Shown here in pieces: positions 3,081-4,335 of a stretch of 4,335 nt of DNA. The stretch's first letter is position 1, and each line of letters opens with the position of its first letter. This DNA comes from a virus. Its lineage: Duplodnaviria > Heunggongvirae > Uroviricota > Caudoviricetes. Below the pieces are notes generated by a model. The model was not told where the DNA came from and did no database searches. It saw only the letters and a list, made by a program, of their open reading frames with translations. The stretch is from the IMG/VR virus record IMGVR_UViG_3300011952_000033; one strand, written 5' to 3'. Position numbers and translations under genes: made by a program.

Positions 3081-3476
3081 CTAACCTCGCATGTCAAAGC
3101 CAGATTTCTGAAAATCTCTGTAGACTTCCGGATTGTTGAAGGCCGGAAATTTGGCTTTATGAGCTGCGGACTTTATCGCTTCGCAATAGGCTTTATCACC
3201 GTTACTGGTAGATATTTTTAACGCCGTGCCATCCTGAGAGAATTCCATATGCAACCTGCATTTTTTCCCTTTCCAGTTATGCGGCTCATCAAGTTTGGCA
3301 TTAATTGCAGCTCTGATTCCCCGCGCTTGCGCCCCCCATTCATCCTGATCATCCCAGCGTCCTGAACTGCAACTACCTGTAGCAGTAGTTTTGTGGCAAT
3401 CTGAAGGGTGTAAAGGTGTGCATCCCGCAACAAAACCGACCCAAAAAGTCAACATAACGATTTTCTTTAATCCCAC
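3081..3476 (-). CDS. Putative outer-membrane lipoprotein with divergent TolA-C-terminal-domain-like region (paralog of the 3627-4055 gene)
   Basis: 131-aa ORF. GTG start at 3474-3476 preceded by GAGGAG at 6-nt spacing (plus 3484-3489). Signal peptide with lipobox MGLKKIVMLTFWVGFVAGC, T at +2. The C-terminal approx. 85 aa (GKKCRLHMEFSQDGTALKISTSNGDKAYCEAIKSAAHKAKFPAFNNPEVYRDFQ) share the motif skeleton and two conserved Cys with the neighbouring gene and with TolA domain III. Stop TAG at 3081-3083. Start codon choice (GTG vs internal ATG at M8) is uncertain. Confidence 0.75.
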   Translation of the reverse strand: MGLKKIVMLTFWVGFVAGCTPLHPSDCHKTTATGSCSSGRWDDQDEWGAQARGIRAAINAKLDEPHNWKGKKCRLHMEFSQDGTALKISTSNGDKAYCEAIKSAAHKAKFPAFNNPEVYRDFQKSGFDMRG

Positions 3477-3626: not shown

Positions 3627-4055
3627 TCAGGGTTTAAAATCCAGCACCCCATTTTGAAATACTTTATATACTTCCGGCGAAGGGGGGGCAGGTATATCAG
3701 CATTCTTTATCGCATTCATCGCTTCACGACATAAATCGAGGTCTCCACTTTCTCTTTTAACCTCCAGTAGAAGGCCATTCGGGGCCATATGCATTCTCAG
3801 TGTACACTCTTTTCCTGAATACTTACTCGCATCCCCGAACTGTTTTTCGATGGCGCTCTTGATTTGATGGGCATACAGACGGATATCCTCACTAACATCA
3901 GAAGTACGTTCAGATGAACTCACATACTGTGTCTCTATTGCTTTATCGGAGTAATATGATGTACGGTCATGATAATTTGTCGATACAGCATCAGTGCACC
4001 CGATAATAATCCCACTAATAATCAACGTAAGAATTGATGCGCTACGAAAACCCAT
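3627..4055 (-). CDS. Putative outer-membrane lipoprotein with TolA domain III-like C-terminal domain (TolA mimic)
   Basis: 142-aa ORF. ATG at 4053-4055 preceded by GAGGA (plus 4059-4063). Signal peptide with lipobox MGFRSASILTLIISGIIIGC, T at +2, then a Ser/Thr/Tyr-rich acidic linker. C-terminal approx. 83 aa (YAHQIKSAIEKQFGDASKYSGKECTLRMHMAPNGLLLEVKRESGDLDLCREAMNAIKNADIPAPPSPEVYKVFQNGVLDFKP) align without gaps to my recollection of E. coli TolA C-terminus (YAGQIKSAIESKFYDASSYAGKTCTLRIKLAPDGMLLDIKPEGGDPALCQAALAAAKLAKIPKPPSQAVYEVFKNAPLDFKP), roughly 60 percent identical by eye, both Cys conserved. Confidence 0.85.
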   Translation of the reverse strand: MGFRSASILTLIISGIIIGCTDAVSTNYHDRTSYYSDKAIETQYVSSSERTSDVSEDIRLYAHQIKSAIEKQFGDASKYSGKECTLRMHMAPNGLLLEVKRESGDLDLCREAMNAIKNADIPAPPSPEVYKVFQNGVLDFKP

Positions 4056-4084
4056 TTTTCCTCACATATGTCATATAGTAAAGG

Positions 4085-4114
4085 ATTATATATACCGTTG
4101 TTTTGGACGCTCAA
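4085..4114 (-). promoter_or_regulatory. Candidate sigma70 promoter for the lipoprotein pair
   Basis: Minus strand reads TTGAGC (plus 4109-4114), 18-nt spacer, TATAAT (plus 4085-4090); alternatively TATATA with a 16-nt spacer. It sits about 30 nt upstream of the lipoprotein ATG at 4055 in an AT-rich context. Sequence-only prediction. Confidence 0.4.
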
Positions 4115-4172
4115 ACAGCGAATCAGATCAAATAAAACGCACATTTGTTAACATTTACACAAAGTCTGCGTG

Positions 4173-4193
4173 GGATATTCTGAAAGAATATCC
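4173..4193. promoter_or_regulatory. Perfect 9-3-9 inverted repeat GGATATTCT-GAA-AGAATATCC, candidate operator or RNA hairpin
   Basis: Read directly from sequence at 4173-4193. No flanking U-tract on either strand, so not a canonical intrinsic terminator. Lies about 60-85 bp upstream of the candidate -35. Confidence 0.35.
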
Positions 4194-4335
4194 ATAATGT
4201 GGAGAGAATCTATTGAAGTGCATGGTGCCGGGTGCCTCCCGGTGCTCTGGCCGAACTGGCAAACTCCAGAGCGGTGACCTTTAGACTCCGAGCATCGCAC
4301 GATAGTTACGATGCCAGTTCTCCGCGTGCGCTAGC

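Follow-up and report, generated by a model that had tools for sequence, protein, structure and literature searches.

What is the short, GC-rich run of hairpins at the upstream edge of this prophage's lysis region, and is it likely to have a function? The window, which is the whole 4,335-nt stretch of DNA analyzed here, comes from a lambdoid prophage and represents its late region; on the minus strand, the GC-rich edge is followed in order by two genes for lipoproteins with a TolA C-terminal domain, a holin gene, a lysozyme gene, Rz/Rz1, and a trkG-type gene. The two lipoprotein-like genes lie in tandem (3627-4055 and 3081-3476, both on the minus strand; PF06519) and occupy the position of a moron between the RNA element described below and the holin gene. 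The first of them is found in identical form in very many E. coli assemblies (40386 index blocks), and contigs encoding the identical protein show the same gene order, with a Q-like antiterminator gene about 1 kb upstream; these contigs are Rac-like prophages.

Positions 4224-4335 are 62.5% G+C, compared to 33.9% in 4056-4223 and 42% across the whole window, consistent with the sharp contrast to AT-rich surroundings described in a first-pass annotation of this sequence. That annotation had also judged the stretch to be noncoding, with stop codons in the minus-strand frames by 4306 or 4281, and not to be a tRNA. Both judgments hold: the minus-strand stops, frame by frame, fall at 4333-4331, 4308-4306, and 4283-4281, leaving all three frames closed by 4281, while ARAGORN reports 0 tRNA or tmRNA genes and a search of 3900-4335 against Rfam at E up to 10 yields no tRNA family match. 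Its proposal that at most the final 9-17 codons of an upstream gene, possibly the late antiterminator Q, might be included is not sustained, as full-length relatives have about 15 nt of the same RNA at this place (GGUGAAU and the 5' strand of helix P2), preceded by further noncoding leader. The end of a coding gene was rejected in general, given the closed frames, indels among relatives that are not multiples of 3, and compensatory changes.

The three minus-strand stems described in the annotation all exist, the middle one exactly where it had been placed and the first and third displaced by 1-2 nt from where it had put them (4229-4243 and 4290-4312; compare Table 1). They are not mutually exclusive, as had been supposed, and attenuation through exclusive stems falls with that claim. 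Instead, the stems do not overlap, occur together in the minimum-free-energy (MFE) fold, and are predicted to be adjacent helices of one fold; the sole overlap is one of 2-3 nt between the 5' strand of a pseudoknot (4320-4312) and the start of the third stem. Folding-energy z-scores are uninformative for a piece this GC-rich and truncated, with a value of +0.39 against shuffles for the window fragment and values of -1.1 to -2.7 for full-length relatives. Because the fragment folds no better than its shuffles, the case for structure beyond chance rests on homology and covariation.

Table 1. Features of the element and its 3' flank, listed from 5' to 3' on the minus strand; positions are those of the window.
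Feature	Sequence	Position	Strand	Remark
Strand expected directly upstream of 4335	...GUUGUGGUGAAUGCG			able to pair with 4227-4220
P1 5' strand (..GGUG), AAU, P2 5' strand	...GUGGUGAAUGCG	beyond edge, ~15 nt		from relatives
P2 loop	GCUAGCGCA	4335-4327	-	aligned with full-length L008, L005, L007
P2 3' strand	CGCG	4326-4323	-	aligned with L008, L005, L007 (GUUGUGGUGAAUGCGGCUAGCGCACGCGG...)
Pseudoknot 5' strand	GAACUGGCA	4312-4320	-	9-bp complement of 4261-4253
Pseudoknot strand pair, subclass	GAACUGGC/GCCAGUUC
P3 variable hairpin	GCAUCG ... CGAUGC	4292-4314 (strands 4314-4309 / 4297-4292)	-	in MFE fold
P4	GCUCUGG / CCAGAGC	4272-4266 / 4250-4244	-	loop carries UGCCAGUUC, 4261-4253
Mosaic junction		4244/4245		identity boundary versus E. 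coli genomes
Single unpaired base	A	4243	-	between P4 and P5
P5	CCGGG-AGGCA-CCCGG	4228-4242 (strands 4242-4238 / 4232-4228)	-	almost invariant over family
P1 3' strand	CACC + AUGC	4227-4224 + 4223-4220	-	closes fold with off-window 5' ...GGUG
9-bp palindromic hairpin	GGAUAUUCU-UUC-AGAAUAUCC	4173-4193	-	aligns with Rfam STnc100 terminator stem
Sigma-70-like promoter match	TTGAGC-18-TATAAT	4085-4114	-	10/12 consensus match only

The homology is to the Rfam family STnc100 (RF02076). The match covers 4335-4166 on the minus strand and model positions 44-206, with the 5' end cut, and its score of 30.9 bits (E 4.7e-5) does not reach the Rfam gathering score of 47 bits; a covariance model of the family core that we built in this analysis, R1, gives the window copy 33.8 bits (E 1.2e-5), likewise flagged as 5'-cut. 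Typical STnc100 members score 80-208 bits with the Rfam model, and uncut relatives from the subclass discussed below, IMG/VR contig L008 and Pantoea phage AH07, score 29.6 and 30.1 bits over positions 31-147 only. The 3' half of P2, P3, P4, P5, and the 3' strand of P1 of the STnc100 core fold are all present in the window, and the 5' strand of P1, which lies outside it, is supplied by relatives that are 92-97% identical to the window part (L008, L005, L006, and L007). The closest of these to 4335-4224 is L008, at 97.3% over 112 nt (3 differences). Phage mEp460, which has the sequence from 4244 downwards in common with the window, carries a full STnc100 (114 bits) flanked by Q and two tRNA genes on one side and by the same TolA-like gene on the other, and the STnc100 of VT2-Sakai (207.7 bits) starts 75 nt after stx2B. 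In the latter phage (L130 3489-3748), STnc100 on the plus strand and the anti-sRNA AsxR on the minus strand are convergent, 1-2 nt apart, downstream of stx2B. The element is not AsxR/AgvB itself, AsxR being this convergent neighbor on the opposite strand (PMC4104026).

Two parts typical of STnc100 are missing. No intrinsic terminator of the STnc100 type (a GC-rich stem and U tract 30-60 nt after the core) is present in 3900-4335, and model positions 1-30, corresponding to a 5' leader of about 30 nt, are unmatched in the subclass relatives, with no adjoining promoter found there. The hairpin at 4193-4173 is perfect and AU-rich, and is followed by CACGCAG rather than by U's. As DNA, this palindrome (GGATATTCT-TTC-AGAATATCC) sits at the family's terminator position with no T tract on either strand, and may represent either an operator for a protein or a terminator that has decayed. 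Taken together, these comparisons suggest that the run of GC-rich hairpins represents most of a pseudoknotted small RNA of the STnc100/PasD family, namely its 3' portion, in an unusual variant form.

The STnc100/PasD family is already known and is carried by many lambda-like phages of enteric bacteria. STnc100, a Gammaproteobacterial RNA, and PasD1/PasD2 are related prophage sRNAs, and PasD1/PasD2 need Hfq for stability and have many RIL-seq partners, though their function has not been elucidated (PMC8550237; bioRxiv 10.64898/2026.05.13.724894). Family RNAs have been detected by Northern blot and RNA-seq (PMC8550237), and the evidence for Hfq-dependent sRNAs concerns other family members than the window copy (PMC8550237; PMC12370729). 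The invariant motif, searched as a text string, had no match in the literature covered.

To describe the fold beyond this one fragment, we scanned IMG/VR for the segment CACCGGGAGGCACCCGGCACC, which gave more than 120 contigs, with 85 distinct elements among them, and searched with R1, which returned 119 copies in 90 sources, some of them without the exact 21-mer. Across the family the core is about 110-135 nt long and is laid out as P1 (xxxGGUG ... CACCxxx), a joiner AAU, P2, a variable P3, P4, one A, and P5, which runs straight into the 3' strand of P1. With the A2 alignment fitted to the model's structure, standard pairs fill 88% of pair cells over 105 distinct sequences, versus 76% in shuffled controls and 41-48% with slid partners, and 17 of the 25 pairs show changes on both sides (6/8 in P1, 3/4 in P2, and all 8 in P4). 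The region of P3 varies in length and sequence, with GCACCAAC...GUUGGUGC found there in L012, for example, and in diverged copies the P1 core GGUG/CACC becomes GAUG/CAUC or GGCG/CGCC. G.U pairs outnumber A.C by 206 to 46 across the family alignment, indicating that the structure forms on the strand read here, the minus strand. Conserved structure is therefore present and the covariation strong, and of the options offered in the first-pass annotation it is the structured small RNA that gains support from the family match and the covariation.

P5 behaves differently from the other helices, being 100% paired with zero two-sided changes in 103 sequences. The surrounding 21-mer is present in more than 120 IMG/VR contigs and across many Enterobacterales genera, and P5 and GGUGAAU are kept in Escherichia, Salmonella, Klebsiella, Enterobacter, Citrobacter, Kosakonia, Pantoea, Erwinia, Rahnella, and others. 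Because sequences were collected by exact-pattern scans, the invariance of the 21-mer and of GGUGAAU is partly inflated; the copies found by R1 alone partly offset this bias, carry single changes only in P5, and confirm its near-invariance, with P5 taking the form CCGG-GAAA-CCGG in diverged copies. Exact matches were also seen in records labeled Prolixibacteraceae (a 388-bp contig), Mucilaginibacter (a MAG), and Vagococcus (L151, L181, and L195), and these are most likely contaminating enterobacterial prophage DNA.

Beyond the nested helices, the sequences point clearly to a strongly covarying pseudoknot in the family core, between the stretch downstream of P2 and the P4 loop. In nearly every copy, 6-9 nt beginning 2-4 nt after P2 are complementary to the P4 loop, and more than 40 different strand pairs fill these positions across the family, such as AGACUGAC / GUCAGUCU in AH07 and AUCAGCG / UGCUGGU in mEp460. 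Cognate strands form a mean of 6.81 contiguous bp, compared to 4.74 +/- 0.13 when strands are permuted among the 78 distinct combinations, and 0 of 5000 permutations reach the observed mean. This pairing is absent from the Rfam STnc100 structure line, is not mentioned in the preprint on the family (bioRxiv 10.64898/2026.05.13.724894), and was not found described elsewhere.

Most family copies look like autonomous transcription units, as judged from consensus scans, the sole source of our promoter and terminator calls. A near-consensus sigma-70 promoter with its -10 element ending 2 nt before the model start is seen in 40 of the 112 distinct copies, a spacing at which the transcript would begin at P1, and an intrinsic terminator follows within 120 nt in 67 of the 112, mostly at 30-60 nt. 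Tandem arrays also occur, with 3-5 copies spaced about 250 nt apart on some phage contigs (L036 1724-3286; L068 4378-5461 and 8378-8517; L027 371-990; L018 2324-3352), each copy having a different pseudoknot and P3 and most having their own terminator. In Klebsiella phage 2b the order terminator, promoter, element, terminator is found among tRNA genes in the interval between Q and the holin gene, and the element is an independent gene. A pR' or 6S-like leader was also considered, as many copies located before holin genes have TTGACN-18-TAAATT, a promoter resembling lambda pR', directly adjoining P1; this reading was rejected on the evidence of phage 2b, where the element stands on its own 700 nt past Q and a pair of sites resembling pR' and tR'. 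The same holds for the late-promoter or qut-like leader proposed in the first-pass annotation: in annotated relatives (Klebsiella phage 2b, VT2-Sakai, and mEp460) the element lies 700-1100 nt from Q, well downstream of pR', tR', and tRNA genes, as a unit of its own. No copy of the element is present in P22. A further conserved motif, CCTGGTAAATCGGTAGCTCGGACTATTAGG, lies 90-125 nt after the element in L014, L028, L077, L102, L111, and L113, and goes with copies that have a promoter but no terminator and precede holin genes in Klebsiella-type phages.

We consider it probable that the window edge holds a divergent, recombinant core of the STnc100/PasD type, with its 3' five-sixths at 4335-4220 on the minus strand, and that this core acts as RNA. 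Like its abundant, Hfq-dependent, autonomous relatives in lysogens, the window RNA would act at the RNA level; its compact pseudoknotted core would be a stable module, most likely recognized by a conserved cell component, and would protect adjacent single-stranded sequence and present it for Hfq-mediated base pairing. The Hfq-associated regulatory role comes from published experiments on autonomous relatives and would extend to the window copy by analogy. Counting against this explanation as a whole is the score below the Rfam gathering threshold, and counting against the Hfq role in particular is the absence from the window copy of the U-tract terminator, the supposed Hfq site of the family.

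The picture of a base-pairing Hfq sRNA may moreover be incomplete, since an elaborate core with an invariant hairpin exceeds what such an sRNA needs. The conservation of P5 and GGUGAAU, together with a tRNA-like topology, hints at a conserved binding partner. It is conceivable, if doubtful, that the family as a whole is a compact, pseudoknotted, tRNA-shaped RNA that docks on a conserved Enterobacterales component via P5 and the GGUGAAU joiner, with P3 and the pseudoknot tuning specificity and leader copies acting in cis; RNA polymerase, the ribosome, a tRNA-processing enzyme, or a defense nuclease may be the docking partner.

Returning to the window copy, its origin is written into an abrupt boundary of identity. 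The sequence at and below 4244 is 100% identical to the late region of Rac-like prophages in 788 complete E. coli genomes, while 4245-4335 is found in 0 of 5426 complete E. coli genomes, and this places the crossover at the 5' edge of the invariant 21-mer. Rac-like contigs have a different 5' half (the ten with the identical TolA-like protein are all of the L041 type), and the exact junction sequence has 0 matches in the one-genome-per-species contigs. The window copy thus appears to be a recombinant, joined within the invariant 21-mer to a Rac-like late region; the 21-mer would have been the crossover point between phage modules that gave the hybrid, and the junction lies where it would be expected if this conserved segment mediates homologous exchange between phage modules.

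As a rare recombinant, the window copy could be inert, a relic of a cross between a Rac-like late region and the element of another phage, in a family that is itself functional. This reading accommodates the one-sided distribution just described, the absent U-tract terminator, the promoter-like site that the TolA-like gene has of its own, and the adjoining of trkG by the Rac-like region, as in defective prophages. The promoter-like match stands about 30 nt upstream of the gene (4055-3627) and suggests that the gene is independent of transcription through the RNA. Yet every helix within view is intact, as is the 9-bp pseudoknot, just 3 of 112 nt differ from L008, and, judging from the pairing of the sequences, a P1 of 7 bp could form between a 5' strand of the L008 type and the 3' strand of the Rac type, and we therefore regard an inert relic as unlikely.

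The window copy falls, by its sequence, within a divergent subclass of the family in which P2 is UGCG/CGCG, versus CCCC/GGGG in the others, and P3 and P4 are longer than in STnc100. Consensus scans almost always find no promoter or terminator adjoining subclass copies, L008 and AH07 among them, and only L020 shows a terminator-like site; lacking these signals, the subclass RNA must be part of a longer transcript, which in the window would run toward the two TolA-like lipoprotein genes and the lysis cassette. In most subclass members the element forms part of the early-left operon leader, 750-950 nt downstream of a gene for a cI-like repressor and ahead of the first early-left genes (L008, L005, L124, L046, L009, and AH07). 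In AH07 and L008 the element follows pL, a 49-aa ORF, and terminator-like hairpins, which are visible in both sequences and were flagged by the consensus scan in AH07 only. A conserved long hairpin, CACAACGG-GAGAGC ... GCUCUC-CCGUUGUG, is found directly before the element in the promoter-less subclass (L008 5300-5370; L002, that is AH07, 2850-2950) and in lambda (L129 990-1060). The outer pairs of P1 share sequence with the 3' strand of this hairpin, and the two structures could therefore compete or stack.

Such placement raises the alternative of a cis-acting leader element, in which the nascent RNA binds RNA polymerase or an elongation component in the manner of HK022 put, or controls its own operon. 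The subclass without its own promoter and terminator would fit, as would the position of six relatives in early-left operon leaders and of the window copy upstream of lysis genes, the fact that no N-like gene was seen at the early-left position of the subclass phages, and the overlap of the upstream CACAACGG...CCGUUGUG hairpin with the outer 5' strand of P1, permitting alternative pairing; the invariance of P5 and GGUGAAU over many genera likewise suggests contact with a conserved host machine. We nonetheless find this reading quite unlikely. HK022 putL and putR match neither the Rfam STnc100 model nor R1, a result that also speaks against an HK022-type version of the antitermination element suggested in the first-pass annotation. 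The AH07 and L008 elements lie downstream of terminator-like hairpins and so would be of no help to polymerase there, and AH07 has a separate, weakly put-like stretch just after pL. Across the family, the 67 of 112 copies that are soon terminated accumulate as short RNAs, the opposite of antitermination, and tandem arrays of promoter, element, and terminator fit gene units rather than leaders.

The fold itself invites comparison with a tRNA, and a decoy or ligand-binding RNA was weighed in several forms: a mimic presented to a tRNA-handling enzyme or defense nuclease, a riboswitch aptamer, or a self-cleaving ribozyme. P1 would map to the acceptor stem, P2 to the D arm, and P5, abutting the 3' strand of P1, to the T arm. 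A multihelix junction closed by P1, with P5 continuous with the 3' strand of P1, a pseudoknot and nearly invariant unpaired bases, the setting of element genes among phage tRNA genes, and the conversion of P5 to CCGG-GAAA-CCGG in diverged copies are all in keeping with such a role. A tRNA mimic, aptamer, or ribozyme is nevertheless highly unlikely, considering that ARAGORN finds no tRNA or tmRNA, that Rfam at E up to 10 offers no tRNA, riboswitch, or ribozyme match in 3900-4335 apart from a chance-level hairpin-ribozyme match, that the P5 loop has 5 nt compared to the 7 of a T loop, and that both a conserved CCA end and an expression platform overlapping P1 are absent.

Finally, a DNA-level element (a module boundary or recombination site, an ssDNA fold, or a mere homology patch) would account for the mosaic junction, which coincides exactly with the 5' boundary of the invariant 21-mer, for core flanks that differ among phages, and for copies at moron insertion sites, but is very improbable. 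Against it stand the fixed distances of promoters and terminators, G.U pairs specific to one strand, and the RNAs already detected by Northern blot and RNA-seq (PMC8550237). Homology-driven exchange needs neither a pseudoknot nor covariation in P1, and recombination here is better taken as a by-product of conservation.

For the window alone, an STnc100/PasD-type core acting as RNA is a modest matter, concerning one truncated and possibly inert copy. RNAs of this type are, however, among the most abundant prophage RNAs of pathogenic E. coli and are found next to Shiga toxin genes. The covarying pseudoknot, the near-invariant hairpin over many genera, the sub-threshold subclass in operon leaders, and the crossover segment offer handles on the family, and these four results suggest that the view of it as a simple Hfq sRNA may be incomplete.

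Among known systems, the lambda late leader between tR' and S (J02459 44856-44942; L129 1057-1143) occupies the same position and has the same upstream hairpin sequence (...GCCUGGUUAGCCAGUGCUCUUUCCGUUGUG), with a closing helix UUGUGCUG/CAGCACAA around GCUGAAU...UAAGCG...ACCGG-loop-CCGG. Its interior is largely different or deleted, it scores 12.6 bits (E 0.16) with R1, and it is at best a degenerate relative. HK022 putL and putR resemble the element in being structured phage RNAs of about 70-130 nt with stacked helices, situated in operon leaders of phages apparently without an N protein, but show no sequence or model similarity to it. In addition, put sites lie directly after the promoter and before terminators, whereas the subclass elements come after terminator-like sites and in most family members termination follows the element closely. 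In AH07, a leader after a consensus pL with repeated GTAACTAAAGGTAC operators (L002 2528-2625) resembles HK022 putL/putR (CGAACNG ... GGAUGA ...), suggesting that this phage has a put-type antiterminator RNA in addition to the STnc100-like element, which follows 400 nt later.

The closest counterparts remain the prophage sRNAs themselves. PasD1 and PasD2 of enteropathogenic E. coli are reported structural homologues of STnc100, are prophage-encoded, and adjoin the Q antiterminator gene (PMC8550237; bioRxiv 10.64898/2026.05.13.724894); the PasD terminator has a U tract and the window copy does not, a comparison made by description rather than by sequence. Relative to STnc100, the window subclass differs in its UGCG/CGCG P2, in the missing 5' leader of about 30 nt and 3' terminator, and in that many members are found in the early-left operon and not in the late region. 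What the window copy and STnc100 share is the core, with the same GGUG/CACC closing helix, AAU joiner, P2 with a ...GCG.. loop, P4, and CACCGGGAGGCACCCGGCACC, and the same kind of location, the interval that separates Q from the lysis genes in lambdoid prophages.
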